Assembly: GCA_964607765.1 (NCBI GenBank)
Contig: CAZSNT010000035.1
Location: forward strand, 1,103 to 65,102
DNA from: an uncultured Victivallales bacterium
GTDB taxonomy: Bacteria > Verrucomicrobiota > Lentisphaeria > Oligosphaerales > JABHEG01
Direction: 5' to 3'
Length of the DNA stretch: 64,000 nucleotides
How positions within the stretch are numbered: position 1 is the first letter of the stretch; every line of letters starts with the position of its first letter. The notes beneath the pieces are model-generated. The model was not told the DNA's origin. It worked only from the letters and a program-made list of their open reading frames with translations, and did not search any database. The position numbers were made by a program, and so were the translations under genes. Below are positions 11,675 through 46,606 of the stretch, piece by piece.

Positions 11675-11720
11675 TCGGCCAACGAGGGCGAACAATGATC
11701 CATATAAGGACATATGACCA

Positions 11721-12794: not shown

Positions 12795-12843
12795 CAGCGG
12801 AGACGGCCGTGAAGAGAGTAGCAAAAGAGCATGAGGCCATCAT

Positions 12844-17421: not shown

Positions 17422-17492
17422 GACGATTACGGACGAGGATTACGGTTGACGACCCGCCCGCTCGTGATCCGTAATCGTCGCCCGTAATCGTC
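17422..17492. promoter_or_regulatory. Near-perfect 24-nt inverted repeat (duplicated GATTACGG half-sites) about 55 nt upstream of the P2 start codon
   Basis: 'gacgattacggacgaggattacgg' is followed by 23 nt and then 'ccgtaatcgtcgcccgtaatcgtc'. 22 of 24 positions are complementary. It lies in the only long (320-nt) intergenic gap of the window. It could be an operator, a hairpin or a repeat element. Confidence 0.55.
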
Positions 17493-17545
17493 CGCCGAAT
17501 CGCGCCAGGAGAACCAATGGTCACACGGAGAGAGAGAAACTCCAG

Positions 17546-29097: not shown

Positions 29098-29142
29098 GCC
29101 CCTGGAGAGAGCCATGAAGCGAGAATCCGCAGATACGATCAC

Positions 29143-30396: not shown

Positions 30397-30490
30397 CGGA
30401 GCCCCGCGAGCTCCGGACGTCCGCGCGACGGTCCCCGGAGAGCAATACATGGCCGAAGCCAGGACCGAGGCCAACACGGACGGATAGAAG

Positions 30491-33400
30491 ATGAACAACA
30501 TGAACCGCAAGTACTTCCTCCTCTGGGCCCTTCTGGCCCTCGGCGCATTCGCCGCCGAGGACTTCGAACAGGGCGCCGCCGTGCCGGGCGGCTGGTCGGC
30601 TGCGGGCGGCGCGTCGGTTCGCATCGTCCGCGAACGCTGCAAGTCCGGCCAACAGAGCTTGCTCTGGTCCTGGTCGTCGGCAGGCGACTCCCTGGTCCAC
30701 GCCGACCCGGCGGCCTTTCGGAAGCTGACCGCAGACAATGGCCGGGGGTTTGGCAGTTGCCTGGGCATGTGGGTGTACAACGAGACGCCAACTGCCGCGC
30801 CCATGCGTTGCGAACTCCGCAACGGCGACCAGACCGTGGCCCGCTTCTGGTTCTGGATGGATTTCCGCGGCTGGCGCCCCTTGATGGTGCGCTACTCGCA
30901 GATCGGCTGGAGCAAGGGCCAAGCGGTCACGGGGTTGCGGATCATGCCTCCCGAGGGGCTCGAAAGCGGTCGGCTCTACATCGACGGGTTCGACGCGAAC
31001 TTCATCCATCGCGGCCCGGCGCGCGACTATCAGATGCCCTGGGTCGGGCATGAGAACGGCCTGGCGGACCCGGCTGCGGTCGCGCTGAGCAGCACCAACA
31101 TCGCACAGAACCGGCCGTGGTTGCCCGAACTGAAGCCGGTCGCGGCATTCACGGCGGCTGAGCGTGCGGACCTGGCGCGGCTGGCCGAGGCCTTGCCGAA
31201 ACTGCGGGAGCGTGTTCGCGTACCCGTACTCGCCAAGGAAGAGTCGTCCCCGGGCACGGACGACATGCGTCCGGCGGCTGAGCCAGTGGCCGCCATGCGG
31301 GCCAAGCTCAAGGCGTGGGGCATCGTGCGCGAGAACGGCGTGCTGCGCGGCCCCGCCATCGGCAACACCTCGCCCATGAAACCCGCGGAAGCCGTACACA
31401 TGGCCGAATACATGAAGCTCTGCGGCCAGGTGCGCAACGCGTTCCAGCGCGCCCGCGACCCCGACGACGCGGGCGACCTGGCGCGGATGTTCGTGGACCT
31501 GGCGGAGCACCTGCTGGACCAGGGCTGGGCAGAGGGCTCCGGCAACATGGGCTCGTTGGGCAACGGCTACGGCCTGCGTGACTGGCCGCCGTATTTCTAC
31601 TCCATGCGCGATGTCTTGGCAGAAGCCGGCATCTTGCGTGAGGTCGCGCTGGGCCTCAGTTGGCACATGGGCTGGGGACATTCGGCGATGAGCGAACACC
31701 CCGGCGGCAGCATGGACACGCTGAACAACTACAACCGCGCGTTGCTGCCGTGCGCGCTCATGATGCCCGACGAAGCCGAGCGTCTGCAGCGCCTACGCGT
31801 GGTCCAGCGTCACTTCAGTCTCGCCCTGACCAATCCCCGCATGCTCGGACCCGACGGCTCTGCCTACCACCACGGCATGCACCATTTTGCCTATGCGTCG
31901 TATTCCATGGGGGTGGCATTCCGCACGGCCCACCGCCTGCGGGACACCGTCTTCCGCCTCTCCCCCGAAGCCCACGAACACCTGCGCGCCCACGTCCACG
32001 CCATGACGTTCGCCACGGTCAACGGCCAGCAGCCCCCAAACATGAATGCTCGGGCGGGCGCCCCGCTCAACTGCGACATGAGCAAGTGCCGGACCATCCT
32101 GGCTGACATTGACGCTTCGGCGCCGCCAGCCGAAGAGCGCGACCGCCGCTGCCCGCAGTCTGCATCGGGCCATTGGACGATGAACGGCACGGCTGCGTCG
32201 TTGCACCGTCGGGACGACTGGCTGGTGAGCATCGTGGGCATGATCAAGTTCTGGCGCGGTCTCGAGATCTACGGCTGGACCCAAACGAACAACTACGGGG
32301 AGTATGCACGCTACGGTTCCGTGCTCGTCTGCGCCTCTGGCGACCCGGTGTCGCTGGCCGAGAGCGGCATGGTCCACGACGGCTGGGACTGGTGCAAGTG
32401 GCCGGGAACAACAGCCTTGCAGCGGCCGTCCCATGAGATCTTCCGGGGCTACGCAATGCGCGGCAACCCCACCGCTTTCGCCGGCGGCACGCGGCTGGAA
32501 GACGACGGGGTCTGGGGAATGGACTTCCAGGGCAGAGACGTGCACTTCCGCAAGTCTGTGTTCTGCTTCGACAAACGCGTCACCGTGGTCACCACCAACA
32601 TTCGCAGCGACGAGGACAGACCGGCGCTCACCACGCTCTTCCAAGCCGCGATCGACCCTCAAGCGGAGGCCCTGACCGTGAACGGCGAGAGCATTGCGCA
32701 GTTCCCCTGGGAGTCGCAGTTGCCTGCGGACAGACTCCAGTGCCTGACCGACGGCAAAGGCAACGGCTACCTCGTCCACCCGGGTGAGAGCAGCCTGCGC
32801 CTGCACCGCAAACCCCAGGAGTGGGTCTACATGACAGAGAAGTACCTGAGGGATCCTGCCGACAACCCGATTCAGGACTACCGCCGACGTCGGTACCGGC
32901 ACCGGAACGTCGTCGAAAACGAGGCGTACTTCACACCCTCGACGAACAACTTCGCAACCGCCTGGTTCGAGCACGGCGCGAAGCCGACCGACGCGGCCTG
33001 TGCCTACACCATCTTCGTGCAGTCTTCCCCCGAAGAGCTGGTCGCGGCCGCTGCCACTCCCCCATACACCGTGCTGCGCCAGGATGAACAGGCCCATATC
33101 CTACACGATCACCCGACCGGCACCACCGCCTACGTCATCTTCGACGAAACCGTCGAGCTCACCGCAGCGCCCTCCAGACTGCCCCCCATCCCCCATCAAT
33201 CCGCAGTCCGCAATCTGCAACCGAGCCAGAAGCGAGCTCGACGAGGTCAGCCTCCAATCTGCAATCTGCAATCTGCAATCTGCAATCTTCAATCTGCAAT
33301 CTGCAATCTGCAATCCGCCTCCCGTCCCTGCCTCGTCATGCTTCGCCGGCATGGCAGGAAACGCCTGACCCTCAGCGTTGCGTCGACGGACAAGGCCCTG

Positions 33401-33580
33401 ACGGAACCGATCGTCCTGGCCGTCCCGGGACGATGGCGTCTGGCAGGTCAGTTCCCCGAAGGAGTCACCGCCACGGCCGAGGAGAATCTGACCCGTGTCC
33501 ATGTCCCCTACCGGGACTACATGCCGGTTCAACTTGATCTGAGAAGACGCAGCTGGTTCGACGCCATTCTGGGACGGTAG
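30491..33580 (+). CDS. Chondroitinase-ABC-like lyase (PL8-type), paralog P4, secreted
   Basis: Signal peptide 'MNNMNRKYFLLWALLALGAFAAE'. Motifs 'QSLLWSWSSAG', 'GMWVYNETP', 'MDFRGWR', 'GSGNMGSLGNGYGLR', 'DGSAYHHGMHHFAY', 'DGWDWCKWPGTT', 'FRKSVFCFDKRVTVVTTNI' and 'FEHGAKPTDAACAYTIFV'. Confidence 0.8.
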   Translation: MNNMNRKYFLLWALLALGAFAAEDFEQGAAVPGGWSAAGGASVRIVRERCKSGQQSLLWSWSSAGDSLVHADPAAFRKLTADNGRGFGSCLGMWVYNETPTAAPMRCELRNGDQTVARFWFWMDFRGWRPLMVRYSQIGWSKGQAVTGLRIMPPEGLESGRLYIDGFDANFIHRGPARDYQMPWVGHENGLADPAAVALSSTNIAQNRPWLPELKPVAAFTAAERADLARLAEALPKLRERVRVPVLAKEESSPGTDDMRPAAEPVAAMRAKLKAWGIVRENGVLRGPAIGNTSPMKPAEAVHMAEYMKLCGQVRNAFQRARDPDDAGDLARMFVDLAEHLLDQGWAEGSGNMGSLGNGYGLRDWPPYFYSMRDVLAEAGILREVALGLSWHMGWGHSAMSEHPGGSMDTLNNYNRALLPCALMMPDEAERLQRLRVVQRHFSLALTNPRMLGPDGSAYHHGMHHFAYASYSMGVAFRTAHRLRDTVFRLSPEAHEHLRAHVHAMTFATVNGQQPPNMNARAGAPLNCDMSKCRTILADIDASAPPAEERDRRCPQSASGHWTMNGTAASLHRRDDWLVSIVGMIKFWRGLEIYGWTQTNNYGEYARYGSVLVCASGDPVSLAESGMVHDGWDWCKWPGTTALQRPSHEIFRGYAMRGNPTAFAGGTRLEDDGVWGMDFQGRDVHFRKSVFCFDKRVTVVTTNIRSDEDRPALTTLFQAAIDPQAEALTVNGESIAQFPWESQLPADRLQCLTDGKGNGYLVHPGESSLRLHRKPQEWVYMTEKYLRDPADNPIQDYRRRRYRHRNVVENEAYFTPSTNNFATAWFEHGAKPTDAACAYTIFVQSSPEELVAAAATPPYTVLRQDEQAHILHDHPTGTTAYVIFDETVELTAAPSRLPPIPHQSAVRNLQPSQKRARRGQPPICNLQSAICNLQSAICNLQSASRPCLVMLRRHGRKRLTLSVASTDKALTEPIVLAVPGRWRLAGQFPEGVTATAEENLTRVHVPYRDYMPVQLDLRRRSWFDAILGR
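33196..33316 (+). repeat. Heptanucleotide tandem array (consensus GCAATCT) inside the P4 coding sequence
   Basis: There are 9 contiguous 7-nt units at 33254-33316: ccaatct, gcaatct x4, tcaatct, gcaatct x2, gcaatcc. About 4 degenerate units lie at 33196-33223. The array is translated as 'ICNLQSAICNLQSAICNLQSA'. Confidence 0.9.
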
Positions 33581-33682
33581 CTGAAGACACCTGGATCGGC
33601 CATCCCAACGCGAATGCTTCGAGGAGTGAATCAACCGGGACCACACCGAAACCGGTCCGAGCAACTAAGAGAGTTCAACACG

Positions 33683-36025
33683 ATGAGCAGGAATAGCGAG
33701 ACCATGAACACGGCCTGCCGCACGCTTCCGGCGGCGGCAGTACGCCCGGACACCGGCATCCGCTGTGCGGGAAACATGTACGCCAGGACGTACCCGGGGC
33801 CTTGCTGGCCTTTCGGTATGGCGCAGCCTGGGCCGGACAACATCACCGGCTGGGATTTCACTAACGGCTATTCCAGCGACATGCGCTTCATCGAAGGTTT
33901 CTCGATGATGCGAATGAGCGGCACCGGGTGGTTCGGCGATTTCGGCAGCCTGCAAGTCATGCCCACCACCGGCCCCATGCAGACCTACCGTGGCAACACC
34001 CTGGCGCGGGGCGGCGAACAACGTCGGAATGGCTGGCATTCGTCCTTCCTCCAACGCGATGAGGAGATCCGTCCCGGATATTACAGCGTCCTCCTGCATG
34101 ATTACCGCATCCGCGCCGAGTTGACGGCTACTCGCCACTGCGGGATAATGCGCTTCACCTTTCCCGAGCATGACCAGAGCCGCATTCAGATCGATCTGGC
34201 CCGGCGAATTGGCGGCACCACCAGCGAGCAAGCCTTCTCCGTGGTTGGGGACCGTGCCGTGGAAGGCTGGGTGCGCTGTGGACCGGAAGGCGGCGGCATG
34301 GGCAACGGAAGGCCTGAAGACCTCAAGTACCGGGTTCACTTCCGCGCCGAGTTCAGCCGCCCCTTCGACTCGGTCGGCTGCTGGGAGGCCACCTTCCCGG
34401 AAGGCACCAAGCGCGACCTCCGCTACATCGCAACTGACGAGTACGCCGACGCGTGCCGAAACGCCGAGGTCCGCCCCGGAACGCGGCAGGCACACGGGCA
34501 GCATCTTGGCTTCTACACCGAGTTCGCAACACGGGCCGACGAGCAGGTGCTCCTCAAGCTGGGCCTCTCCTTTGTTGACATTGACGGGGCGCGGCGCAAT
34601 CTCGAGGCGGAGCTGGACCACTGGGACTTCGACCGCGTCAGACGCGAGCTCGTCGCGGCCTGGGAGCAAGAGCTCAAGAGCCTGCGAGTCGCTGCCGGCA
34701 CGCCGCGCGACGAGGCGATTGCTGCGACAGCCGTCTATCACACGCGCCTGGACCCGCGTCGAATCGATGATGTCGACGGACGCTACGTCGACGGCAACGG
34801 ACAGCCCCGGCAGATGAAGGCCTGGCGACCACGCACGGTCTTCAGCGGCTGGGACGCCTTTCGCAGCTACATCCCCCTGATGACACTGATGGCCCCGGAC
34901 CTCGTCAACGATCAGGTTAACACACTGCTCGAAGTGGCAACGACAACTGGCAAGGGCCTCCCGAAATGGGAGTTGATGGGAATCGACATCGAGTGCATGG
35001 TCGGCGACCCGGCCGTCGGCACGATTGTCGACGCCTACCTGAAAGGAATCCGGGATTACGACGTCGAGCTGGCCTACCAGCTCTGCCTGGAAACGGCTTT
35101 CGGCCCGCGCACGCATCGGGACGACTGGCAGGTCTACCGGGACCTCGGCTACTGCCCGATGCGCCGCCGCCCGGACGGTCGCTACGTGGGCGCCGGCGTG
35201 TCCACCACCTTGGAGAACTGCTATTTCGACTGGTGCGTGTACCGCTTCGCCAAAGCGCTCGGGCGCGAGGAGGACGCCGCGCGACTGCGCCCGTCCCTGA
35301 CGAACTACCGCAACATCTACTGTCCCGACGTGGGACTGATGCGGGGCCGCGAGGAGAACGGGGACTGGATTCCCTGGCAGGGCGCGACGACATTCGGCCA
35401 GGGCTGCGTCGAGTCCAACCCGCTCCAGCAGAGTTTCTTCGTTCCCCACGACCCGATCGGCCTCATGCAGCTGATGGGGGAAGACCGGTTCTTCGACACC
35501 CTCGAGGACATGTTTGCCAAAACCCCGGCAAGCTGCTTCTGGAACCCCTACTACAACCATTCCAACGAGCCCGTCCACCAGCTCGTGTACATCTTCGCCT
35601 GCACGGGACGACCGTGGCTGACACAGAAGTACGCCCGCTGGGTGCTCAAGAACGCGTACGGCCTCGGGCCCGAGGGGCTCTGCGGCAACGACGACGTGGG
35701 CCAGATGTCGGCTTGGTACCTGCTGTCCGCCATGGGGCTCCACCCGTTCTGCACCGCGTCGAACACCTACGTCATCGGCAGCCCCCTCTTCCCCGAGATC
35801 GAGCTCGACCTCGACCCGCGCTACCACGCCGGCGAGACGCTACGGATCGTCGCCCGCGACAACTCCGACACGAATGTCTACGTCCAGCATGCCGAGCTCA
35901 ACGGCAAGCCGCTGAACCGTGCATGGGTGACCTATGAGGAACTGACGTCGGGCTGCACACTCGAATTCCACATGGGCCCCAAGCCCAACATGGAATGGGG
36001 CACAGAGAACGAAGGGACAGAATGA
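33683..36025 (+). CDS. GH92 family glycosidase (alpha-mannosidase-like), high-GC paralog of 9368..11674
   Basis: Same motif set as the paralog: 'FSGWDAFRSYIPLMTLM', 'TLENCYFDWC', 'FVPHDPIGLMQLMG', 'NHSNEPVHQLVYIF' and 'GNDDVGQMSAWYLLSAMGLHPF'. The start was chosen by alignment to the paralog. ATG 33614 and ATG 33704 are alternatives. Confidence 0.88.
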   Translation: MSRNSETMNTACRTLPAAAVRPDTGIRCAGNMYARTYPGPCWPFGMAQPGPDNITGWDFTNGYSSDMRFIEGFSMMRMSGTGWFGDFGSLQVMPTTGPMQTYRGNTLARGGEQRRNGWHSSFLQRDEEIRPGYYSVLLHDYRIRAELTATRHCGIMRFTFPEHDQSRIQIDLARRIGGTTSEQAFSVVGDRAVEGWVRCGPEGGGMGNGRPEDLKYRVHFRAEFSRPFDSVGCWEATFPEGTKRDLRYIATDEYADACRNAEVRPGTRQAHGQHLGFYTEFATRADEQVLLKLGLSFVDIDGARRNLEAELDHWDFDRVRRELVAAWEQELKSLRVAAGTPRDEAIAATAVYHTRLDPRRIDDVDGRYVDGNGQPRQMKAWRPRTVFSGWDAFRSYIPLMTLMAPDLVNDQVNTLLEVATTTGKGLPKWELMGIDIECMVGDPAVGTIVDAYLKGIRDYDVELAYQLCLETAFGPRTHRDDWQVYRDLGYCPMRRRPDGRYVGAGVSTTLENCYFDWCVYRFAKALGREEDAARLRPSLTNYRNIYCPDVGLMRGREENGDWIPWQGATTFGQGCVESNPLQQSFFVPHDPIGLMQLMGEDRFFDTLEDMFAKTPASCFWNPYYNHSNEPVHQLVYIFACTGRPWLTQKYARWVLKNAYGLGPEGLCGNDDVGQMSAWYLLSAMGLHPFCTASNTYVIGSPLFPEIELDLDPRYHAGETLRIVARDNSDTNVYVQHAELNGKPLNRAWVTYEELTSGCTLEFHMGPKPNMEWGTENEGTE

Positions 36026-36068: not shown

Positions 36069-37796
36069 ATGACTAGAATGACACTGGTCCCGGTAGTGCT
36101 CGCCGCGTGCTGCTGCCTGCATGCGGAAACGCCGAACATTGTCTTGATGCTGACGGATGATCAGGGGTATGGCGACTTTGGCGCAACCGGGAACCACCTG
36201 ATCAAGACGCCGCATATCGATACTCTGGCAGCTCAGTCATTTTCGATGACCCGTCTTTACGTCAATCCGGTGTGTTCGCCGACGCGAGCTGCCTTACTGA
36301 CGGGGCGGAACAGCTATCGGACCGGCGTCACGGATACCTGGAGAGGGCGCTCGACGTTGCGGGAGCAGGAGTTCACCATTGCCGAAATGCTCAAGACGAA
36401 AGGGTACTCAACAGGACTCTTCGGCAAGTGGCACCTGGGCGACAATTACCCGCACCGACCGATGGAGCAGGGCTTTGACAAGGCGATCTACCATCAGGGC
36501 GGCGGACTTGGCCAACCGTCGGACCCGCTTGAAAACAGGAACCGATACACCGACCCGATTCTGTTCGACAACGGCAAAGCGTACCAGGCGAAAGGCTACT
36601 GCTGCGACATCTACTATGACGAGGCCATCAAGTGGCTTACGGCGGAACACAAGAAAGGCAGGCCCTTCTTTGCGTACATCGCGACGAACACGCCTCACGC
36701 GCCGTTTCACGACGTCCCAGAGAAATGGTATGAGCACTACAAGCAGATGGACCTGTCCAACAGGGATTTCAAGAATCGCAGCGGACATGCCATACCCGGC
36801 AACCCCGGCGGCGACACGACTGCCCGGATCTACGCGATGGTGTCCAACATCGACGACAACGTGGGCAAACTCACCGCGGCTCTCAAGGCGTTGGGAATCA
36901 AAAACGACACGATCATCGTCTACCTCACCGACAACGGCCCCAACGGGTATCGCTACGTCGGCGGATTTCGAGGGAAGAAGGCGATGATCACCGAGGGCGG
37001 AATTCGCAGTCCGGGCTGGTTTCACTGGCCGGCACGATTCAAGGCCGGCGGCTCGTCAGACTTGCTTACCGCTCATCTTGACCTGATGCCCACGCTGGCA
37101 GACCTGACCGGCGCCGAACTGCCGAAGGACCGAGGCATTGACGGCAGGTCGATTCTCCCGGTGTTGACAGGGCAGGACCCGACGCTGCGCTGGGACGACC
37201 GCATGATGGTTTTCCAGTGGCATCGCGGCGACCGACCACAGCGGCTGCGAAACGCGGCAGTCGTCTCACAGAACTGGAAGATTGAGGCGAGCAGCAAGGA
37301 CAAGATGTCCCTGTTCGACATGCGGGACGACCCGTATGCCATGCGCGACCTGGGGGACGGCAGGCCGGAAGTCAAACAACGCATGCTCGATTTCTACGAT
37401 CAGTGGTTGCGCGGGTTGGACAGCGAATACCCCAATATGTGGGAAACGCGACACGTCCTCCTTGGCGCGACCGACGAAGAAGTCTTCCTGACCAGGATGG
37501 AAATGATCTTCACGAGAGGCAAGTGGCACAAACCCGAGTCGCTTGGCTACTGGAACGTCAATTTCAGCAAAACCGGGAACTATGACGTTGCTTTCCAGTT
37601 GGCCACAGTAGCGAAACACGTCAAAGCAAAGTTGCTGGTCGACGGCAGCGCGACCCAGAGCAAGGAGTTTCACAACCAGCAGAGAATGCACTTCGATGCA
37701 GTCGAGATAGCGAAAGGCAAGGTCAAACTTGCGTTCGACATTACGGCAGATGGCAAGAGAATGGGCGTCTGGCACGCGTTCGTAAAGAGCGAGTGA
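36069..37796 (+). CDS. S1 sulfatase, Cys-type, secreted
   Basis: Signal peptide 'MTRMTLVPVVLAACCCLHA'. Motifs 'NIVLMLTDDQGYGD' and '[12 protein letters not shown]'. It is a paralog of 7781..9253. GC is lower than in its neighbours. Confidence 0.9.
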   Translation: MTRMTLVPVVLAACCCLHAETPNIVLMLTDDQGYGDFGATGNHLIKTPHIDTLAAQSFSMTRLYVNPVCSPTRAALLTGRNSYRTGVTDTWRGRSTLREQEFTIAEMLKTKGYSTGLFGKWHLGDNYPHRPMEQGFDKAIYHQGGGLGQPSDPLENRNRYTDPILFDNGKAYQAKGYCCDIYYDEAIKWLTAEHKKGRPFFAYIATNTPHAPFHDVPEKWYEHYKQMDLSNRDFKNRSGHAIPGNPGGDTTARIYAMVSNIDDNVGKLTAALKALGIKNDTIIVYLTDNGPNGYRYVGGFRGKKAMITEGGIRSPGWFHWPARFKAGGSSDLLTAHLDLMPTLADLTGAELPKDRGIDGRSILPVLTGQDPTLRWDDRMMVFQWHRGDRPQRLRNAAVVSQNWKIEASSKDKMSLFDMRDDPYAMRDLGDGRPEVKQRMLDFYDQWLRGLDSEYPNMWETRHVLLGATDEEVFLTRMEMIFTRGKWHKPESLGYWNVNFSKTGNYDVAFQLATVAKHVKAKLLVDGSATQSKEFHNQQRMHFDAVEIAKGKVKLAFDITADGKRMGVWHAFVKSE

Positions 37797-37855: not shown

Positions 37856-40800
37856 ATGAGCAGAGCAACCCATGGATTTCTAGGCCTGTGGTTACTGGTC
37901 GCCGCGGGGCAGGCAGCGGAGGGCGTTCCTCATGCCAGTGGTGGGGCCGACATCCTGGCGAAAGCAGGTTTCGCGGGCGGTTTGGTCGTGCACGTCGGCT
38001 GCGGCGACGGCCGGCTGACGGCCGAACTGCGCTCTGACACGGGGTCGCTGACCCACGGGCTCGACGCCGACCCGGCCAATGTCGCCAAGGCGCGGCAGCA
38101 CATTCATTCGACCGGGCAGCATGGGCGGATTGTCGTCAGTCACTTCGATGGCCGGTCGCTGCCCTATTGCGACAACCTGGTGAACCTGGTTGTGGCCGAC
38201 GAACTCGGCGCAGTTCCCATGGCCGAAGTGACGCGCGTGCTGGCTCCTTTGGGCGTCGCTTATGTGGGCGGAAAGAAGACAGTCAAGCCGTGGCCGAAGG
38301 AGATCGACGAGTGGACGCATTTTCTGTATGATGCGAGCGGCAATGCCGTGGGACACGACAGCGTTGTCGGGGCCCCGCATCACGTGCAATGGGAGGCGGG
38401 ACCGAAATGGGCGCGCACGCACGACCACCTCGCCAGCATCAGTGCCCTGGTTTCGGCGAACGGACGGCTCTTCTACATCATAGACGAAGGGTCCATCGCG
38501 TCGGCCGCGTTGCCGCCCAAATGGAAACTGGTCGCGAGAGATGCCTTCAACGGGATCGTGCTGTGGAAAAGGGCCATCGCCCCCTGGGAGGGGCACCTCA
38601 GGGCGTTCCGCAGCGGGCCCTCGGAAATCCCGCGGCGGCTGGTGGCGAAGGGAGATCGGGTTTACGTGACCTTGGGGTATGGGAAGCCCGTGACGGCCCT
38701 TGATGCGGCAACGGGCGAGACCCTGAGGACCTATGACGACACGGACGGGACGCATGAGATCTTGTGTGAAGACGGCGTTCTGTATCTTGCCGCAGGGGAG
38801 ATTCCAGCGCCGCAGTGGAGGAAGGCCCGAAAGCGACGCGGGGCGGTCCCCACGCCGCGCGAGAAGCGGATTCTGGCGATTGAAGCCGACACGGGCCTGC
38901 AACTGTGGAGCAAGTCGGATGAGGATACGCGCGAGTTGTTCCCGCTCTCCCTTGCTGTCGGTGGCGATCGGGTCCTTTTTCACAGCCCGAGCCACTTGAT
39001 CTGCCTGGACAAGCGGTCCGGAAAAGAGTCTTGGCGCACACCTCGGCCGGTCAACATGAGACGGCCCGGGTATTCGACCCCCACCCTGGTCGTGTGTGAC
39101 GACGTTGTCCTGGTCGCCGAGCGCAACATCCCCCCCGAGCAAACGAACACGAGTGAGACGGTGCGATGGGACGTGACGTATCGGGCAGCCATGAAGACAG
39201 GGCTGGGCCGGTTGATCGCCTATTCGGCGGCGACGGGCAAAGAGCTGTGGTCCTGCCCATCTTGCGAGGCGTACACGTCGCCGACGGACCTGTTTGTCGC
39301 CGACGGGCTCGTGTGGGTGTCCAATGTCCCGGATCGAAAAACCGCGGATTTCAGGGAGGGACGCGACCTCCGCACAGGTGAAGTGAAGAGGCGGCTTGAC
39401 ACGACAGAAGCGTTTACCGCCAATCATCATCACCGCTGTTACCGAAACAAAGCGACGGACCGCTACGTGTTTCTTGGCCGAAGCGGGACCTCGACCATCG
39501 ACCTGCAGGGCGGAGAGCACTTGCGCCATTCATGGGTACGTGGCGGTTGCCAGTTCGGGATCCTGCCCTGCAACGGGCTTCTGTACGCGCCGACACACCC
39601 CTGTGCCTGTTACATCCAGAGCAAGCTCAGCGGCTTCTTCGCGCTTGCCCCCAAACGGACTGCGGACAGCGCACGGTGGGAGCAGGACGGAGAGGCGCTG
39701 GAGCAAGGCCCTGCCTATGGCTCTCTCGACGGGCGAGAAGTCAGCGCGTCCCAGGACTGGCCCACGTACAGGGGAGACAATGCTCGCAGCGGCGTGACGA
39801 AAACAGCCGTTCCCACGAATCTGTCAAGATCATGGACCGCAAAACCGGGCGGACGACTCACGGCGCCCGTGGTCGCCGACGGACGGGCCTATGTGGCATC
39901 GGTCGACCGGCATGTGCTGCACGCGTTGAACGCGGACTCGGGAGACGTGCTTTGGACTTTCGCGGCAGGCGGCCGCATCGACTCGCCGCCCAGTGTCGCC
40001 AACGGGATGGTTGTGTTTGGCAGCCGAGACGGGACGGTCCATTGCCTCCGCGCCGACGACGGTCGGCTGATCTGGCGCTTCCGGGCAGGGCCGGCGAGAA
40101 GGCTGGTGGTCTCCTACGGGCAAGTGGAGTCTGCCTGGCCCGTCCACGGGAGCGTGCTGCTCCACGAGGGCACGGTCTATTTTGGCGCCGGGCGGTCGTC
40201 GTATCTGGACGGCGGCATGGCGGTCTACCGGCTCGACCTGGCAACCGGACGACAACTGTCGAAGACGCATCTGTACGACCGGGACCCCGTAACCGGCGCT
40301 CAGTTCAAGGACCGGACGAAGGACGACTACGACATGCCCGGCGGACTGCTGGACATCCTGTCGTGCGACGGCTCCTCCGTCTACATGGGCGAGATGCGTT
40401 TCGATCTGCGCGGCAATACTCAAGAGCCAACCGTCCCCCACCTGTTCAGTTCGGCGGGGTTTCTGGACGACACGTGGTGGCACAGAACGTATTGGCAATA
40501 CGGCATTCACATGCTTTCCGGCCCCTATGAATGGTCCATGGTAGGCAACACGCTACCAGCCGGACGCATCATGTCCGTCGACGACTCAACCATCTTCGGA
40601 TTCGGCCGAGACAAGTACGCGGCCGGTGGGCACGTCGGGCTCGGGAGCAGCGCCCTCCGGGCTTCCTATGATCGAAACAAAGGCGGGCGCTACACGCTGT
40701 TCGCCGTGGCCAAGGAGCCCTATGTCACGGCGGAGCCTTTTCAGAAGGCGAGAAAGACATTTTCCCGCAAACGCCCCAACGAGAAGACCGACTACTTGTG

Positions 40801-41083
40801 GCAACTGCAGATTCCCTTATGGGTGAGAGCCATGGTCCTCGCTGACAAGGCGCTGTTCATTGCGGGGCACCCCGACGAGCGCGACAAGGCCGACCCGTAT
40901 GCCGCCCTGGACGGCGCGAAAGGGGGCATGCTGTGGGCGGTCGCCGCAAAGGACGGAAGCACTATGTCGAAATATGCGCTGGATGCGCCTCCGGTCTTCG
41001 ACGGAGTCGCGGCCGCGGGTGGAAGACTCCATCTGTCCCTGACAGACGGCTCGCTGACGTGCATGGAAGGCGACAGGAAATGA
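37856..41083 (+). CDS. Secreted SAM-methyltransferase-like + PQQ/BamB-like beta-propeller protein (paralog 2 of 3)
   Basis: Signal peptide 'MSRATHGFLGLWLLVAAGQAAEG'. Class-I methyltransferase motif I 'LVVHVGCGDG', followed by 'HGLDAD' and '[20 protein letters not shown]'. Invariant '[11 protein letters not shown]' and 'CQFGILPCNGLLYAPTHPCACY'. Propeller repeats are present. GTG 37817 is an alternative start. Confidence 0.75.
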   Translation: MSRATHGFLGLWLLVAAGQAAEGVPHASGGADILAKAGFAGGLVVHVGCGDGRLTAELRSDTGSLTHGLDADPANVAKARQHIHSTGQHGRIVVSHFDGRSLPYCDNLVNLVVADELGAVPMAEVTRVLAPLGVAYVGGKKTVKPWPKEIDEWTHFLYDASGNAVGHDSVVGAPHHVQWEAGPKWARTHDHLASISALVSANGRLFYIIDEGSIASAALPPKWKLVARDAFNGIVLWKRAIAPWEGHLRAFRSGPSEIPRRLVAKGDRVYVTLGYGKPVTALDAATGETLRTYDDTDGTHEILCEDGVLYLAAGEIPAPQWRKARKRRGAVPTPREKRILAIEADTGLQLWSKSDEDTRELFPLSLAVGGDRVLFHSPSHLICLDKRSGKESWRTPRPVNMRRPGYSTPTLVVCDDVVLVAERNIPPEQTNTSETVRWDVTYRAAMKTGLGRLIAYSAATGKELWSCPSCEAYTSPTDLFVADGLVWVSNVPDRKTADFREGRDLRTGEVKRRLDTTEAFTANHHHRCYRNKATDRYVFLGRSGTSTIDLQGGEHLRHSWVRGGCQFGILPCNGLLYAPTHPCACYIQSKLSGFFALAPKRTADSARWEQDGEALEQGPAYGSLDGREVSASQDWPTYRGDNARSGVTKTAVPTNLSRSWTAKPGGRLTAPVVADGRAYVASVDRHVLHALNADSGDVLWTFAAGGRIDSPPSVANGMVVFGSRDGTVHCLRADDGRLIWRFRAGPARRLVVSYGQVESAWPVHGSVLLHEGTVYFGAGRSSYLDGGMAVYRLDLATGRQLSKTHLYDRDPVTGAQFKDRTKDDYDMPGGLLDILSCDGSSVYMGEMRFDLRGNTQEPTVPHLFSSAGFLDDTWWHRTYWQYGIHMLSGPYEWSMVGNTLPAGRIMSVDDSTIFGFGRDKYAAGGHVGLGSSALRASYDRNKGGRYTLFAVAKEPYVTAEPFQKARKTFSRKRPNEKTDYLWQLQIPLWVRAMVLADKALFIAGHPDERDKADPYAALDGAKGGMLWAVAAKDGSTMSKYALDAPPVFDGVAAAGGRLHLSLTDGSLTCMEGDRK

Positions 41084-41109
41084 AACCCCGAGCACATAGG
41101 AGTCCGGTC

Positions 41110-44100
41110 ATGAGAAGAAGCCTGAGTGTTCTGTGTACGATTTTCCCTTTGGCGTGGGCGACTGTCCTCCGCGCAGATCCGGGTGACGAAGTACTCACAA
41201 AGACTGGGACGACCGGCGGTCTGATCGTACACGTCGGGTGCGGTGACGGCCAGTTGACCGCCAAACTGCGCACCGCGCAGGGGGCGTTGGTGCACGGGCT
41301 CGACACCAACTGGTCGAACATCGCCAAGGCGCGCCAGCACATTCATTCGACCGGGCAGTATGGACGGGTTGCCGTCAGTCATTTCGACGGCCGATCGCTG
41401 CCGTATTGCGACAACTTGGTGAACCTGATTGTGGCCGATGAGCTCGGCGCAGTTCCCATGGCCGAGGTGACGCGCGTGCTGGCTCCGTTGGGTGTCGCCT
41501 ATGTCGGCGGCAAGAAGACGGTCAAGCCGTGGCCGAAGGAGATCGACGAGTGGACGCACTTCCTGCACGGGCCTGACAACAACGCCGTGGCGCGCGACAC
41601 GCGTGCCGGGGCTCCACGGCACATGCAGTGGTTGGCGGACCCGATGTGGAGCCGCAACCATCACAAGCTGGCCAGCATCAGTTCGGTGGTTTCGTCGGGC
41701 GGGCGTCTCTTCTACATTGTCGACGACTCAACCGGGGCAAGTATGAAGGTCCCGGGGCAGTGGTCGGTCACGGCCCGGGACGCGTTCAATGGCGTGCGCC
41801 TCTGGAAACGTTCGCTCCCCGACTGGGCCTGGACGGGACACAAGTTCCGTTCCGGCCCCGTGCAGCTGCCCAGAACCCTCGTTGCCGAAGGAGGGCGCGT
41901 CTATCTGCCGCTCCGCGGCGGCGCCCCTGTTTCGGTGCTGGACGCGGTGACGGGCGACGTGGTGCGGACGTATGACGCGACCAAGGGCGCCGAAGAGATC
42001 GTGCTGTACAACGACGTCCTGTACGTGGTGACCGGCTCGCCGACAGCGGAGCAGGCTCTGATCGGGCCGAAGAGAGGCGCGAAAATCCCCGCGAAGACTG
42101 TCGTAGCCGTTGACGCGGCGAGCGGGGATGTCCTTTGGCGGTGGTCGGATGGGGAGCGGGGCGCCCTCCTGCCCATGACCCTCGCCGTGTCAGGCGGGTC
42201 GGTCTTCCTGGCCACGGGCCAGGGCGTGGCCGCCTTGGCTGCTGACTCCGGGGCAGAACGCTGGTTTGCCGATGCAGCCTACCTGGAGGGAGCCGGCAAC
42301 CCGAAGAGAATCACCCACGACGCCCGCTACGAACGGATGCCCGAATGGATGTCGCCCCAGCCCGGCAGCGTGGGAAGCGCGCGCGGCCTCGGCTGGTCGT
42401 TGGCGACGCTGGTGGTGCGTGACGAGGTCGTCCTGTGGGCCGGCACCCACCGACTGAGAGCCCTGGCGGCAAAGGACGGCAAGAGATTGTGGGAGGCGCT
42501 CTGTCGCCCGGGTTACTGCAAGTCCCCCGTCGACGTGCTGGCGGTGGACGGCACAGTCTGGGTCGGCCCGGACTTCAACAAGGGGCGCGATCTCCGCACG
42601 GGCGAGGTCACACGCGAGAACGCAGTGTTCGAGGATCTCTGGACAGCCGGGCACCATCACCGCTGCTACCGGAACAAGGCCACCTCGCGTTACATCATGA
42701 CCGGTCACCGCGGCGTTGAGTTGATGGCGTTGCAGGGAGAGGACCACGGGCGCAACAACTGGACGCGCGGGATCTGCCAGTATGGCATCATGCCCTGCAA
42801 TGGGCTGCTCTACGTCCCCACGCACATCTGCGCCTGCTACATCGAGGCGCAGCTGAACGGCTTCTGGGCCTTCGCTTCCGAGCTGGCGTCCCCCATTCCT
42901 CCGCCCGCCGCACCCGCCCTCGACAAGGGCCCCGCCTATGCATCTCCAATTCGGCAATCGGCAATCGACATTCGGCAATCGGCGGACTGGCCGACCCATC
43001 GCGGGAACGCAGCGCGGACGGCGTGTACCGACACTGCCGTACCGCCCGGCCTGTCCCAGGCGTGGCGCACCGAGTTGACCGGGCCGCTCAGCGGCGTGAC
43101 GGTCGCCGGCCGTCGCGTGTTCGTCGCCACGGTCGACTCGCATCAGGTTCGCGCCCTCGACGCCCAGTCCGGCGAGACGCAGTGGCGTTTCACAGCGGGG
43201 GGACGTATTGACTCCCCGCCCACGATTCACGGCGGTCGGGCGTACTTCGGGTCGAATGACGGTTGGGTTTACTGCCTGCGCGCGTCGGACGGCGCGTTGG
43301 CATGGCGCTATCGCGTTGCGCCCGCGGCCCGCTATACCGTGGCCCGGGACGGCGTTGAGTCCCTCTGGCCTGTGCACGGGAGCGTCCTGATCCAGAACGA
43401 CACGGTCTATGCCGTGGCGGGACGATCGTCCTACCTGGACGGGGGACTTCGCTTCGTCGGCCTGGACCCCGAGACGGGGGCGGTCCGTCACGAGACAGTG
43501 TTCGCCAGCAAGCACCCGGACTACGCGAGCATGATGGCGGCCAAGGAAACCGCGTCGAAAGAGCACCCGCTCACGCACACCACTGCGCAGTTCGCAACCG
43601 ACTGGAAGACGTTCACCGATCCGGACAAGAGTGATTCGTTCACAATGGAAGGCGCGATCGACGACATCCTCGTGGGCGACAGCTCCCAAGTCTACATGAA
43701 GCACCTGTGTTTCGACGACGCTCTCGTCCGCCAGGAGCGAGTCGGGCGCCACCTGTTCTCAACCACCCGTCTCTTGGACGACGCCGAGCACCATCGTACG
43801 TTCATGATGCTCGGCACAGCGAACATCAAGCGCGCCCACGTCTCCTACTCGTGGATCGCCAACCGGCGGCATGGCGCGAGAGGGTACTTCTTCGACGTGC
43901 CCTACGGATTGCTCCTGGCCTGTGACGAGACCACGGCCTACGGGATCTGGAGCGGCTACCAGGTCTTTGCCGAGACGATTCGCCCGCAGCCGCAGGATGG
44001 TCCCACGCGGAGCGACATTCAGACAACCCCCGAGCGAAAAGGCAAGGCAAAGCCGGAGTTGCACACCATGCGCTGGCAGACGAAGCTGGCCTTCCGCCCG

Positions 44101-44376
44101 CGCGCCATGCTGCGCACGAAGGACGTCCTTTTCATCGGCGGCATGGACGGGACCCGCGGCCCGGAAGACCTCGTCGAGGCCTATGAAGGCAGGAAGGGCG
44201 GCGTGCTCTGCGCCGTATCTGTGGCGGACGGCAAGGTGCTGGCGGAGCACAAGATTCCGTCGCCGCCTGTGTGGGACGGCATGGCCGCCGCGCGCGGGAG
44301 ACTCTACCTGGCGACCGAGGAGGGCGCCGTTTACTGCTTTGCCGCCGCGGACGAGGCCCGTCCCGGCGGCCAGTGA
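41110..44376 (+). CDS. Secreted SAM-methyltransferase-like + PQQ/BamB-like beta-propeller protein (paralog 3 of 3)
   Basis: AGGAG lies 8 nt upstream. Signal peptide 'MRRSLSVLCTIFPLAWATVLRA'. Motifs 'LIVHVGCGDG', '[11 protein letters not shown]' and 'CQYGIMPCNGLLYVPTHICACY'. ATG 41080 (ATGA overlap with the previous stop) is an alternative start. Confidence 0.75.
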   Translation: MRRSLSVLCTIFPLAWATVLRADPGDEVLTKTGTTGGLIVHVGCGDGQLTAKLRTAQGALVHGLDTNWSNIAKARQHIHSTGQYGRVAVSHFDGRSLPYCDNLVNLIVADELGAVPMAEVTRVLAPLGVAYVGGKKTVKPWPKEIDEWTHFLHGPDNNAVARDTRAGAPRHMQWLADPMWSRNHHKLASISSVVSSGGRLFYIVDDSTGASMKVPGQWSVTARDAFNGVRLWKRSLPDWAWTGHKFRSGPVQLPRTLVAEGGRVYLPLRGGAPVSVLDAVTGDVVRTYDATKGAEEIVLYNDVLYVVTGSPTAEQALIGPKRGAKIPAKTVVAVDAASGDVLWRWSDGERGALLPMTLAVSGGSVFLATGQGVAALAADSGAERWFADAAYLEGAGNPKRITHDARYERMPEWMSPQPGSVGSARGLGWSLATLVVRDEVVLWAGTHRLRALAAKDGKRLWEALCRPGYCKSPVDVLAVDGTVWVGPDFNKGRDLRTGEVTRENAVFEDLWTAGHHHRCYRNKATSRYIMTGHRGVELMALQGEDHGRNNWTRGICQYGIMPCNGLLYVPTHICACYIEAQLNGFWAFASELASPIPPPAAPALDKGPAYASPIRQSAIDIRQSADWPTHRGNAARTACTDTAVPPGLSQAWRTELTGPLSGVTVAGRRVFVATVDSHQVRALDAQSGETQWRFTAGGRIDSPPTIHGGRAYFGSNDGWVYCLRASDGALAWRYRVAPAARYTVARDGVESLWPVHGSVLIQNDTVYAVAGRSSYLDGGLRFVGLDPETGAVRHETVFASKHPDYASMMAAKETASKEHPLTHTTAQFATDWKTFTDPDKSDSFTMEGAIDDILVGDSSQVYMKHLCFDDALVRQERVGRHLFSTTRLLDDAEHHRTFMMLGTANIKRAHVSYSWIANRRHGARGYFFDVPYGLLLACDETTAYGIWSGYQVFAETIRPQPQDGPTRSDIQTTPERKGKAKPELHTMRWQTKLAFRPRAMLRTKDVLFIGGMDGTRGPEDLVEAYEGRKGGVLCAVSVADGKVLAEHKIPSPPVWDGMAAARGRLYLATEEGAVYCFAAADEARPGGQ
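42946..42980 (+). repeat. Short heptanucleotide array (GGCAATC-like, 5 units) inside the propeller paralog 3 coding sequence
   Basis: The units are 'ccaattc ggcaatc ggcaatc gacattc ggcaatc', translated 'PIRQSAIDIRQSA'. They sit in a linker that differs among the three paralogs. Confidence 0.8.
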
Positions 44377-44462: not shown

Positions 44463-45566
44463 ATGAGCGCTGAGCGGGAGACAACAGACATGGCGCCACG
44501 AGCATTCGCGCCGGACTACCGGAACATCGTCGATGCAGCGCGGAACAGGCGGCCCAAGCGGTTGCCTCTGTACGAGCATATCATCTGCCCCGAGATCATG
44601 GAGACGATCCTCGAGGTCGAATTCCTGGACCTGCACGAAGGCGACGGCGCGGACCTGCGTGCGTACTTCGCACGCTACTGCCAGTTCTTCCGTGAGATGA
44701 CCTATGACACGGTCTCGTACGAAGTCTGCGTTGGCGAAGTCCTGCCTGGCGGCGGGGCCCTGCTCCATCCGTCGCGGGGGAGCGCCATCACCTCGCGTGC
44801 GGAGTTCGACGCCTACCCGTGGGACGACCTGCCGCAGCTCTACTGGAAGCGCGCCGCGCCGCGCTTCGAAGCCCTGGCAGCCGTTTTGCCCGCGGGCATG
44901 AAGGCTGTCGGCGGCGTCGGCAACGGCATCTTCGAGATCGCCCAGGACCTGGTCGGCTACGAGAACCTCTGCTTCCTGATGATCGACGACCCCGAGCTCT
45001 TCGCCGAGTTGATGGTCAGGATCGGCGAGGTGCATGTGACGCTTTGGTCCGAGTTCCTGCCGCGGTTCGGTGACGCGTTTGCGGTCTGCCGCATCGGTGA
45101 CGACCTTGGCTTCAAGACCAGCACTCTCCTCCAGCCGGACGTCTTGCTCGCCCACGTCATCCCCCAGTATAGACGCGTCATCCAACTTGTTCACGACGCG
45201 GGGCTTCCCTATTTGCAGCACTCCTGCGGCAGGATCTTCTCGGTGATGGACGCCTGGATCGAGGCCGGCATCGACGCCAAGCACTCCAACGAAGACGCCG
45301 TCGCCCCGTACGACGAGTGGATCGAGCACTACGGCGACCGCATCGGCCTTTTCGGCGGCATCGACACCGACCGGCTGTGCCGCATGGCGCCCGACGACCT
45401 GTTCGAGTTCGTCCTCGACGCCGGCGCCCGTTTCCGCCGAGACGCCCGAGGCTACGCGCTCGGCTCCGGCAACTCCATCCCCGACTACGTCCCCGTCGAC
45501 GGCTACCTGGCCATGATCCGCGCCGGCGGCGAGATCCGGGCGCGCGAAAGCAAAGGAGCATCATGA
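44463..45566 (+). CDS. URO-D / MtaA-like fold protein, subfamily A
   Basis: 'RLPLYEHI', 'PYLQHSCGRIFSVMDAWIEAGIDAKH' (an H-x-C motif) and 'YALGSGNSIPDYVPVDGYLAM' fit the URO-D family pattern. Confidence 0.7.
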   Translation: MSAERETTDMAPRAFAPDYRNIVDAARNRRPKRLPLYEHIICPEIMETILEVEFLDLHEGDGADLRAYFARYCQFFREMTYDTVSYEVCVGEVLPGGGALLHPSRGSAITSRAEFDAYPWDDLPQLYWKRAAPRFEALAAVLPAGMKAVGGVGNGIFEIAQDLVGYENLCFLMIDDPELFAELMVRIGEVHVTLWSEFLPRFGDAFAVCRIGDDLGFKTSTLLQPDVLLAHVIPQYRRVIQLVHDAGLPYLQHSCGRIFSVMDAWIEAGIDAKHSNEDAVAPYDEWIEHYGDRIGLFGGIDTDRLCRMAPDDLFEFVLDAGARFRRDARGYALGSGNSIPDYVPVDGYLAMIRAGGEIRARESKGAS

Positions 45567-46606
45567 CTCACAAAGAACGCGTGGCCGCCGCCATCGCCCA
45601 CCGCCACCCGGACCGGACGCCGCGCGGCGAACTGGGCTACGGGAACGACATCGTGCGACGGCTCATCGGCGCCGAACGCTTCGCCTCCCTCAGCCCGAAC
45701 GAGCGCACACTGGCAGTGATTCGCGAGCTGGGCGCAGACTTGGTCGACGTCCATCAGTTCCCCATTGTCCGCGTGGGCGAGACGCCGTCCGGTTCGGTCT
45801 TCCGCAGCGTGCTCGGCGAGGAGCACGTCATCGTCAACGGCAGCTCCGCCCTGCACAAACCGGCGTTCCAGGACATCGAACAGGCCCGCGACTTCCCGGA
45901 GATCGACCCGGCCACCTGCCTGACCGACAACCTGGACTGGTTCCTCGCCAACAGCGACCTGTATGTCTTCGCCCAGGTGATGGGGCCGGTCAGCGCGTTG
46001 GACTGGATGCTGGGCACTGAGGACTTCATGATCTGGGCCATGACCGAGACCGAGGTCATCCGCGACGTCGTCGAGAAGGTCATCGCGTACGAGATCGCGC
46101 GCGCCTGCATCTTCGTCGATCACGGAGCGGAGGCGATCTTCGTTGCCGACGACATCGCCTTCAACACCGGGCTCTTCCTGCCGCCGCGGATCATGGACGC
46201 GCTCGCCTGGCCGTTCTACAAGAAGATGATCGCGGCGGTCAAGGCGCGACGCGACGTGCCGGTGTTTCTGCATACGGACGGCGACATTCGCAAAGCGCTT
46301 GCGGAGATCGCAGCTTGCGGCTTCGACGGGCTCCACTCGCTCCAGCCCAGCGCCGGCGTGGACATAGACGCGGTCAAACGCGACTACGGCGACCGGCTCT
46401 GCCTGATGGGCAACATGGACCTGAACCACCTGATGCCGTTCGGGACGCCTGCGGAGGTCGCACAAGAGGCACGGCGTCTGTGCCGGGAGATCGGCCACGA
46501 CGGCGGCCACATCCTCGCCACCTGCAACGTCATGACGGACGCCGTGCCGGCAGAGAACGCACGCGCCATGTACGCGGTACAGACCAAGAAGGACGGAGGA
46601 GCATGA
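45563..46606 (+). CDS. URO-D-like fold protein, subfamily A
   Basis: The ATG overlaps the previous stop (ATGA) and AAAGGAG lies upstream. Motifs 'MTHKERVAAAIAHRHPDRTPRGE', 'VFLHTDGDIRKALAEIAACGFDGLHSLQP', 'LMGNMD' and 'GGHILATCNVMTDAVPAENARAM'. The Arg/Pro-rich upstream extension in the ORF track was rejected. Confidence 0.7.
   Translation: MTHKERVAAAIAHRHPDRTPRGELGYGNDIVRRLIGAERFASLSPNERTLAVIRELGADLVDVHQFPIVRVGETPSGSVFRSVLGEEHVIVNGSSALHKPAFQDIEQARDFPEIDPATCLTDNLDWFLANSDLYVFAQVMGPVSALDWMLGTEDFMIWAMTETEVIRDVVEKVIAYEIARACIFVDHGAEAIFVADDIAFNTGLFLPPRIMDALAWPFYKKMIAAVKARRDVPVFLHTDGDIRKALAEIAACGFDGLHSLQPSAGVDIDAVKRDYGDRLCLMGNMDLNHLMPFGTPAEVAQEARRLCREIGHDGGHILATCNVMTDAVPAENARAMYAVQTKKDGGA

Follow-up and report, generated by a model that had tools for sequence, protein, structure and literature searches.

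Exported double-propeller proteins with an invariant four-cysteine module form a large, uncharacterized family in PVC-group bacteria

What is the role of three long, similar proteins that are encoded in a glycan-degradation locus of an uncultured Victivallales bacterium? The proteins lie in a stretch of 64,000 nucleotides (assembly GCA_964607765.1, contig CAZSNT010000035.1, positions 1,103 to 65,102; hereafter, the window). A preliminary description, made from the sequence of the window, viewed them as an unassigned family with no described role and speculated that they might modify sulfatases or a substrate. We report that these proteins are members of a large, uncharacterized family that is found in PVC-group bacteria (Planctomycetes, Verrucomicrobia, and relatives) and whose hallmark is an invariant four-cysteine/His/Arg module. 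Tentatively, and with considerable reservation, we propose that its members are exported by Sec and act as enzymes on, or as receptors for, glycans or surface polymers that are anionic and often sulfated.

First, the three proteins (copies 1, 2, and 3; Table 1) are paralogs with one common layout: a Sec signal peptide, a methyltransferase-like domain, and two 8-blade propellers with the conserved module between them. The three open reading frames (ORFs) are present, as had been described, and the proteins align end to end at 40-48% identity. The PQQ_2 family of Pfam matches all of them (E from 7e-30 to 1e-32), and classic Sec signal peptides are found in copies 1-3 and in 53 of the N-termini of 61 relatives. 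We also considered two other forms of export or attachment and rejected both: an RR-type motif, as for twin-arginine translocation (TAT) of a protein that carries a cofactor, is present in only 4 of the 61 N-termini, and a lipobox-like string, as for lipoprotein anchoring, in only 2.

Copy 3 had been described as starting at position 41110, but its most likely start is ATG 41080, which overlaps the stop codon of copy 2 (ATGA), because its closest relative (P0001, 69% identity) has a matching extended N-terminus (MKPQLRRSL...). Copies 2 and 3 also have a tract of about 65 amino acids in common (nt 38111..38320 and 41365..41559; aa 86-150 of copy 3), which comprises the C-terminal half of the methyltransferase-like domain and the EWTH linker that follows it. 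The tract is 90-100% identical as protein and about 90% identical as DNA, versus about 50% elsewhere, which probably reflects gene conversion between the tandem paralogs.

The family is large. At E ≤ 1e-10, the relatives of copy 3 form at least 5,600 clusters at 90% identity. The best 120 of them are 47-69% identical to copy 3 over their full length and come from metagenome-assembled genomes of Planctomycetota and Phycisphaerae; where these proteins are named at all, they are only called "PQQ-binding-like beta-propeller repeat protein," "BamB family," or "hypothetical." Among species-representative genomes, we detected at least 556 relatives, in Planctomycetota, Kiritimatiellia, Lentisphaerae/Victivallales, and Verrucomicrobiota, along with a few bins that are labeled otherwise. 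When a 116-aa sequence of the module was searched alone against 1.84 billion representatives, it matched 929 clusters (50% identity) at E ≤ 1e-3 and 746 at E ≤ 1e-10. In every full-length match, the module lies at about aa 470-650 of a protein of 1000-1300 amino acids, so the family has a single architecture.

Consistent with the preliminary description, we found no entry of Pfam, NCBIfam, or the PDB that spans the module and, in our literature searches, no mention of the family. Searches of the PDB by sequence, with single sequences and with a profile of the module alone, yielded nothing specific to the module. In the Pfam comparison, PQQ_2 matched all three copies and Methyltransf_25/11 matched copies 2 and 3, and the His/Cys segment was left without any entry.

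Second, the module is very highly conserved. The two motif strings that had been proposed as shared, [10 protein letters not shown](S/T)..Y and W.RG.CQ(Y/F)GI(M/L)P.NGL.Y.P.H.C.CY, are indeed identical in copies 1-3, and the motif is invariant in 61 relatives. (Residue numbers for the module are those of copy 3.) We then counted residues across 287 full-length family members. All four cysteines (C519, C556, C574, and C576) are retained in 285 of them. R518, R553, and W148 of the linker are each present in 287/287, and nearly as well kept are H516 (286), W551 (284), H150 (281), K523 (277), and Y520 (268). This is far beyond what chance would produce. The preliminary description emphasized an invariant cluster of three histidines and cysteines; the cysteines bear this out, but the His triad does not. 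H515 is kept in just 79% of members, with H, M, F, S, A, or P at this position among relatives; H517 is kept in 88%; and position 572 is His in 251 members (87%) and Asp in 22 (8%). A more divergent set of sequences gave the same picture, with N, Q, or E at position 572 as well. The center therefore consists of the four cysteines, a single His, and clustered Arg, Lys, Tyr, and Trp residues, rather than a His triad, and the invariant set consists of Cys4, H516, R518, K523, W551, and R553. Across the linker, both propellers, and the module, dozens of charged or polar residues are invariant, among them H150, D163, R182, H184, E296, H516, R518, R553, E750, R772, D852, D857, H881, and R896.

To place the module in the fold, we ran AlphaFold2 on copy 3 with an alignment of 61 sequences. 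The model has a predicted TM-score (pTM) of 0.86 and a mean predicted local distance difference test score (pLDDT) of 80.7. It contains a helix for the signal peptide, a confident Rossmann-like domain (aa 24-140), and four-stranded blades in two blocks (about aa 169-600 and about aa 648-1080), with a helical insert (805-850) in the second. The linker (E-W148-T-H150) is modeled with low confidence, yet it is invariant in sequence. The His/Cys motif occupies loops around the strands 528-531, 537-540, 566-569, and 584-590, which make up the last blade of propeller 1; here, the pLDDT is only 54-76. When aa 160-650 were modeled alone, the module reached a confidence of only about 40-59, which indicates that it requires the remainder of the protein. 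Comparing the full and the aa 160-650 models to the PDB with Foldseek returned generic 8-blade propellers only (BamB, PQQ dehydrogenases, and tetrathionate hydrolase), with target-normalized TM-scores of up to about 0.63.

Coevolution gave a further view of the module. A mean-field analysis of aa 496-600 (358 near-gapless sequences, with an effective number of about 254) recovered strand pairs of the AlphaFold2 model (L538-L567, L566-A589, and M530-V536). It also coupled the three motif segments to each other (A524-G554, R521-Y558, N522-I578, H533-Y577, and G554-P570, with z of about 3.5-4.4). Because the segments are coupled, the data fit a single compact site that would bring together the Cys, His, and Arg residues.

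Does this site hold a metal or a redox center, as the preliminary description suggested? The exchange of H572 mainly for Asp is, at the sequence level, a pattern typical of metal ligands, and it and the coupling of the segments are in favor. On the other side, the invariant set is equally compatible with something simpler: in an exported protein, a pair of disulfides or a structural Zn site would explain the four cysteines just as well. A more specific proposal would be an exported redox metalloenzyme, with Cu, Fe, or Zn bound by H516/H517, H/D572, and C574-x-C576, which would oxidize or otherwise transform a glycan or a small molecule, as other metal-bearing propeller enzymes do. The H-x-C-x-C pattern with its exchange at position 572, the coevolution, and the low AlphaFold2 confidence in the module, which is often seen for sites that require a cofactor, all fit this proposal, as does the recurrence of TAT-type Gfo/Idh/MocA oxidoreductases nearby (13 loci). 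However, the histidines are less conserved than the Cys and Arg residues, position 572 also tolerates N, Q, or E in the most diverse set, and neither Foldseek nor the PDB searches found similarity to known metallo-propellers. Also, mostly anaerobic groups (Sedimentisphaerales, Kiritimatiellia, and Brocadiaceae) are among the labels of the matching genomes, which speaks against chemistry that depends on O2 as a general function. We consider a redox metalloenzyme to be improbable.

Because invariant Arg, Lys, His, Tyr, and Trp residues are abundant and because the window is a setting of glycan degradation, we favor recognition or cleavage of an anionic glycan. The activity would reside in the two 8-blade propellers jointly with the family-specific module, which lies in the last blade of propeller 1, just before propeller 2. 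C519, C556, C574, and C576 would act as a structural knot, whether through a Zn(Cys)4-type site or through a pair of disulfides. This knot would hold a putative pocket of basic and aromatic residues (H516, R518, Y520, R521, K523, R548, W551, R553, Q557, and N564, with H/D572 nearby), which may bind a sulfate ester or the carboxylate of a uronate. The pocket might then cleave the glycan in a lyase- or hydrolase-like reaction, with His and Tyr as base and acid and with Arg and Lys neutralizing the charge, or it might only recognize the glycan. The N-terminal methyltransferase-like domain would be an accessory domain, for ligand binding or structure, and would be dispensable for the core activity. 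Like the sulfatases and glycoside hydrolases of PVC bacteria, the paralogs would diversify as tandem arrays.

Third, the methyltransferase-like domain needs to be explained. The preliminary description assigned a class I methyltransferase-like module of about 130 amino acids to all three proteins; by our analysis, it is about 115 amino acids long, and only two of the three have a match in Pfam. Methyltransf_25 and Methyltransf_11 exceed the gathering cutoff (27 bits) in copy 2 (36.2 bits) and copy 3 (35.5 bits), which have GCGDG as motif I and an acidic residue (D65) at the end of strand 2. Copy 1 contains the homologous region, but no methyltransferase family of Pfam matches it at E ≤ 0.1, and its glycine loop reads GAHDA, which is a dead GxGxG. 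By sequence, then, the N-terminal domain of copies 2 and 3 is a class I methyltransferase, in an unprecedented location.

Could these proteins be genuine methyltransferases that use S-adenosylmethionine (SAM) outside of the cytoplasm, with the propellers presenting a substrate (the hydroxyl or carboxyl of a glycan, a thiol, or a protein) for methylation by the N-terminal domain? Besides the Pfam matches, this would account for the high AlphaFold2 confidence in the domain and for the conservation across the family: GxGxG is kept in 223 of the 287 members (78%), and an acidic residue after strand 2 is found in 258 (90%). Also, MtaA/CmuA-like genes lie directly downstream of copy 3. But the Sec signal peptides would place the domain outside of the cytoplasm, where we know of no SAM pool; the family consensus shows no conservation at the position of the usual adenine-binding Asp; and the phrase "periplasmic methyltransferase" was not found in the literature that we searched. 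Furthermore, the SAM loop was lost repeatedly. It deviates in 64 of the 287 members (22%) and is grossly degenerate in about 20 (about 7%), including copy 1, and all 64 of these deviating members retain Cys4. We asked if a degenerate loop might mark one old subfamily, but the deviating members are scattered: just 13 of the 64 have a degenerate nearest neighbor, versus 14.3 expected by chance, which indicates independent losses. SAM binding thus appears to have been dispensable again and again and the module never. Repeated loss of the loop in proteins that retain the Cys module throughout suggests that methyl transfer is not the core function, and we view a SAM-dependent methyltransferase as quite unlikely.

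Fourth, we considered the relationship to sulfatases. Within the window, each copy has a sulfatase, or the stub of one, next to it. As previously described, the stop codon of copy 1 overlaps (ATGA) the ORF of a truncated sulfatase of 65 amino acids (7584..7780), and copy 2 begins 59 nt after another sulfatase (described as about 60 nt). The six Cys-type sulfatases that had been counted are, in our analysis, five full-length proteins with CxPxR plus the stub. We also confirmed that the window lacks recognizable maturases: there is no Pfam match to the FGE-sulfatase domain (PF03781) in copies 1-3 or in any main ORF of the window, no Pfam match to a radical-SAM maturase, and no CxxxCxxC in any ORF of 150 or more amino acids. 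In sulfatase-rich strains of Kiritimatiellales, hundreds of sulfatase genes are accompanied by just one anSME and by 11-20 genes with the FGE domain, and a single anSME has been shown to mature multiple sulfatases in Bacteroides (PMC6388578). The absence of a maturase from 64 kb is therefore uninformative.

To see whether the association extends beyond the window, we built a hidden Markov model (HMM) from the sulfatases of the window and scanned 83-87 related loci. A sulfatase is present within 10 kb in just 18-21 of them. As immediate neighbors of family genes, sulfatases account for 11 of 145 genes (7.6%), versus 15 of 431 (3.5%) at ranks 2-8 (odds ratio 2.3, p = 0.06), and of the 11 adjacent sulfatases, 5 are on the same strand and 6 are on the opposite strand. 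This is about a twofold enrichment that is not significant and shows no strand bias, and we therefore rejected the idea, implied by the preliminary description, that each of these proteins has a sulfatase as its partner.

The same data bear on the speculation that the proteins are new enzymes that mature or assist sulfatases, by converting Cys to formylglycine or by otherwise activating the neighboring S1 sulfatases after export. The arrangement within the window suggests this, as does the census of immediate neighbors elsewhere, in which Sulfatase is the most frequent family (10 of 94). The CxC pair could in principle hold Cu(I), as the two cysteines of FGE do. However, most of the loci (all but 21 of 87) have no sulfatase within 10 kb, adjacency is weak, with 6 of the 11 adjacent sulfatases on the opposite strand, and the proteins have no homology to FGE or to radical-SAM enzymes. 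In addition, family genes occur in arrays of up to six copies, unlike maturases, and PVC strains that are rich in sulfatases already encode FGE-domain genes and one anSME that can serve many sulfatases (PMC6388578). A role in sulfatase maturation is highly improbable.

What does lie near the family genes? The strongest regularity is self-association: at least two family ORFs are present in 32 of 82 loci (about 39%), with up to six in a row (L023). In the Pfam census of the 94 immediate neighbors, Sulfatase is followed by a heterogeneous tail of 115 families, which includes Gfo/Idh/MocA, GT2, HZS_alpha, GH51, heparinase II/III, and GH95; GH29 and PL11 are found near other family genes. One glycan-catabolic locus (L084) has four family genes, a sulfatase, a GH95 gene that overlaps by 4 nt, and a 3-keto-disaccharide hydrolase, and another (L087) has a sulfatase and a PL11 gene near the family gene. 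We also tested for co-occurrence with fucosidases and other enzymes and rejected it: HMMs built from the GH29, GH95, PL8, GH92, PL6, and URO-D genes of the window match only 0-3 loci each. Large propeller proteins with an HZS_alpha domain (PF18582) and Gfo/Idh/MocA oxidoreductases with TAT signals (the 13 loci mentioned above) recur near family genes (L001, L005, L084/L085, and about 8 others). To our knowledge, HZS_alpha-domain proteins are poorly characterized in PVC bacteria.

Several observations weigh against our proposal of an exported enzyme or receptor for anionic glycans. Many loci do not have any glycan genes nearby (for instance, L086), and some look biosynthetic: L002 encodes a fucose kinase/pyrophosphorylase and nucleotidyltransferases. 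Neither the PDB sequence search nor Foldseek matched the family to any known propeller lyase, hydrolase, or lectin. Also, most members retain the canonical GxGxG and the acidic residue after strand 2, and our proposal leaves both unexplained.

Within the window, the glycan-catabolic setting of the family genes is clear. A glycan-related locus runs co-directionally across the 64 kb, with every major gene on the + strand, and the family genes lie inside it with short or overlapping junctions (Table 1). The G+C content (GC) of the window is 62.7%. Because six chondroitinase-ABC-type genes and a chondroitinase-B-like gene occur alongside three GH29 genes and a GH95-like gene, the locus suggests a fucosylated, sulfated, uronic-acid-containing glycan as its substrate, for instance, fucosylated chondroitin sulfate or a comparable glycan from algae or invertebrates.

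Table 1. Coordinates and features of the three family genes and of other genes in the window
Feature	Position (nt)	Strand	Details
Copy 1	4477..7587	+	1036 aa; signal peptide aa 1-19; degenerate methyltransferase-like domain; two PQQ-like propellers
Copy 1, EWTH linker	4897-4908	+	
Copy 1, Cys/His module	5986-6174	+	aa 504-566
Copy 2	37856..41083	+	1075 aa; signal peptide; Methyltransf_25/11 from about nt 37976, GCGDG intact; two propellers
Copy 2, EWTH linker	38309-38320	+	
Copy 2, Cys/His module	39425-39613	+	aa 524-586
Copy 3	41080..44376	+	1098 aa from ATG 41080; 1088 aa from ATG 41110; signal peptide; Methyltransf_25/11 (GCGDG)
Copy 3, EWTH linker	41548-41559	+	
Copy 3, Cys/His module	42652-42840	+	
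Copy 3, propellers			propeller 1, about aa 169-600; propeller 2, about aa 648-1080 (numbered from ATG 41110)
S1 sulfatase, N-terminal stub	7584..7780	+	65 aa; ATGA-coupled to copy 1 stop; lower-GC block follows
S1 sulfatase, Cys-type (CSPTR)	36069..37796	+	59 nt upstream of copy 2; neighbor, partnership not demonstrated
Cys-type (CxPxR) sulfatases			five full-length plus one stub
Six PL8-like lyases (chondroitinase-ABC-type)	14124..33580 and 54227..62882		Lyase_N + Lyase_catalyt + Lyase_8; region also has chondroitinase-B-like
Chondroitinase-B/PL6-like protein			one
Glycoside hydrolases			three GH29, one GH95-like, two GH92
Three URO-D/MtaA-like genes	11721..12794, 44463..45566, 45563..46606		cytoplasmic
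ABC permease			
Lower-GC block	within 7584..14127		GC 0.55-0.57 versus 0.62-0.66
Sulfatase in lower-GC block	7781..9253		
GH92 in lower-GC block	9368..11674		paralog of GH92 at 33614..36025
Paralogous pair without assignment	12844..14127 and 29143..30396		about 420 aa; 31% identity, E = 4e-54
ORF entering from the left edge	3..1805		weak GH42-like stretch; BPD_transp_1
Two proteins without assignment	50679..52577 and 1827..2579		632 aa and 250 aa; signal-peptide-like N-termini

Other features of the window are of interest in their own right. Directly after the 65-aa sulfatase stub lies a block of lower GC, which contains a sulfatase, a GH92 gene, a URO-D-like gene, and a gene without assignment; the block looks like an insertion or recombination that cut short the sulfatase downstream of copy 1. 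The second and third of the URO-D/MtaA-like genes are the two that directly follow copy 3. The last of them scores 97 bits against MtaA/CmuA methyltransferases (cutoff 235), and the one before it has an HSCG string, similar to the HxC zinc motif of MT2 enzymes. URO-D-like genes are also found near family genes in three other loci (L025, L035, and L041). The paralogous pair of about 420 amino acids lies amid lyase, fucosidase, and URO-D genes, neither protein has a match in Pfam or NCBIfam, and one relative of the pair is near a family gene in L046. The ORF that enters from the left edge joins a weak GH42-like stretch to an ABC-transporter permease domain and is possibly an unusual fusion or a mis-joined ORF. 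Finally, two proteins with N-termini that resemble signal peptides, encoded between sulfatases and fucosidases, have no Pfam or NCBIfam match.

Why might this family matter? Planctomycetota, Kiritimatiellia, Lentisphaerae, and Verrucomicrobiota are main degraders of recalcitrant sulfated algal glycans, and many steps of these pathways have no assigned enzyme. It is possible, though we are doubtful, that these proteins represent a new exported enzyme class directed at marine glycans that are sulfated or anionic (a lyase, a hydrolase, or a desulfating enzyme that does not rely on formylglycine, acting at a Cys4-stabilized metal or basic site between the propellers) or that they comprise the first bacterial methyltransferases to work outside of the cytoplasm. 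Either would add a missing activity to the degradation of fucoidan and similar fucose-containing sulfated polysaccharides in PVC bacteria. As catalysts, these proteins would make up a new enzyme class that is relevant to marine carbon turnover; if they are not catalytic, then a tempting but unsupported idea about sulfatase maturation has at least been removed. In either case, the invariant Cys4/His/Arg module offers a precise target for mutagenesis, and an exported SAM-type domain is an oddity that calls for an explanation.

How does the family compare to known systems? It lies outside each of the specific families that we tested: BamB, quinoprotein dehydrogenases, FGE, and anSME. In NCBIfam, copies 1-3 have only sub-threshold matches, to BamB, quinoprotein, and methyltransferase models. 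BamB and other 8-blade propellers of the PQQ_2 type (PF13360) have the same type of blade, are extracytoplasmic, and are the best match for both propellers in Pfam, NCBIfam, the PDB, and Foldseek. However, BamB is a lipoprotein with a single propeller of about 390 amino acids and has neither a methyltransferase-like domain nor a Cys4/His/Arg module. Against the BamB equivalog (TIGR03300), the family scores just 69-80 bits, versus a cutoff of 285, and its proteins, at 1036-1098 amino acids, have two propellers and no good lipobox.

These comparisons also bear on a non-catalytic role, in which the double propeller would be a scaffold, chaperone, or binding protein that docks exported proteins or polymers, like BamB or the lumenal propellers of EMC1, and in which Cys4 would be purely structural. 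That BamB is the best match in both sequence and fold is in keeping with this, as are weak matches to the propeller of EMC1, and four invariant cysteines in an exported protein are most simply explained as disulfides. Yet invariant charged or polar residues number in the dozens across the linker, the propellers, and the module, a pattern that resembles an enzyme more than a scaffold. The proteins are also three times as large as BamB, have no lipobox, and score far below its cutoff (69 versus 285 bits). We view a scaffold as unlikely.

The PQQ-dependent alcohol and glucose dehydrogenases have the 8-blade fold and the periplasmic location in common with the family and match it weakly at the level of the repeats. 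Their models score far too low (TIGR03075, 22-50 bits versus 480; TIGR03074, 20 bits or less versus 833) and match short stretches of repeats only, and no match to the cofactor site was seen (the PQQ, Ca, and Cys-Cys residues were not compared singly). Tetrathionate hydrolase (PDB 6l8a), which recurs among the Foldseek matches, is a PQQ-like 8-blade propeller enzyme that acts on a sulfur oxyanion without a cofactor. However, its TM-scores to the family are only about 0.32-0.49, at 11-14% identity, and it has a single propeller, no common motif, and no methyltransferase domain. As for the class I SAM methyltransferases (Methyltransf_11/25; UbiE/RebM-like), copies 2 and 3 pass the Pfam cutoffs and have GCGDG, the acidic residue after strand 2, and the LPY.DN..N/D.. 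pattern of strand 4. In contrast to these enzymes, the domain of the family is exported behind a signal peptide, is only about 115 amino acids long, has no substrate lid, and is fused to 950 amino acids of propellers, and its motif is degenerate in 22% of the relatives, including copy 1.

The propeller polysaccharide lyases of PL22, PL24, PL25, and PL42 are exported enzymes that act on anionic glycans with His, Tyr, and Arg residues, and some of them have metal sites with His or Cys ligands. They have single, 7-bladed propellers and no sequence similarity to the family, and none of them is among the top 50 Foldseek matches in the PDB; by analogy, the family may nevertheless work as these lyases do. 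Overall, by its fold, the family belongs to the superfamily of PQQ_2/BamB-type propellers.

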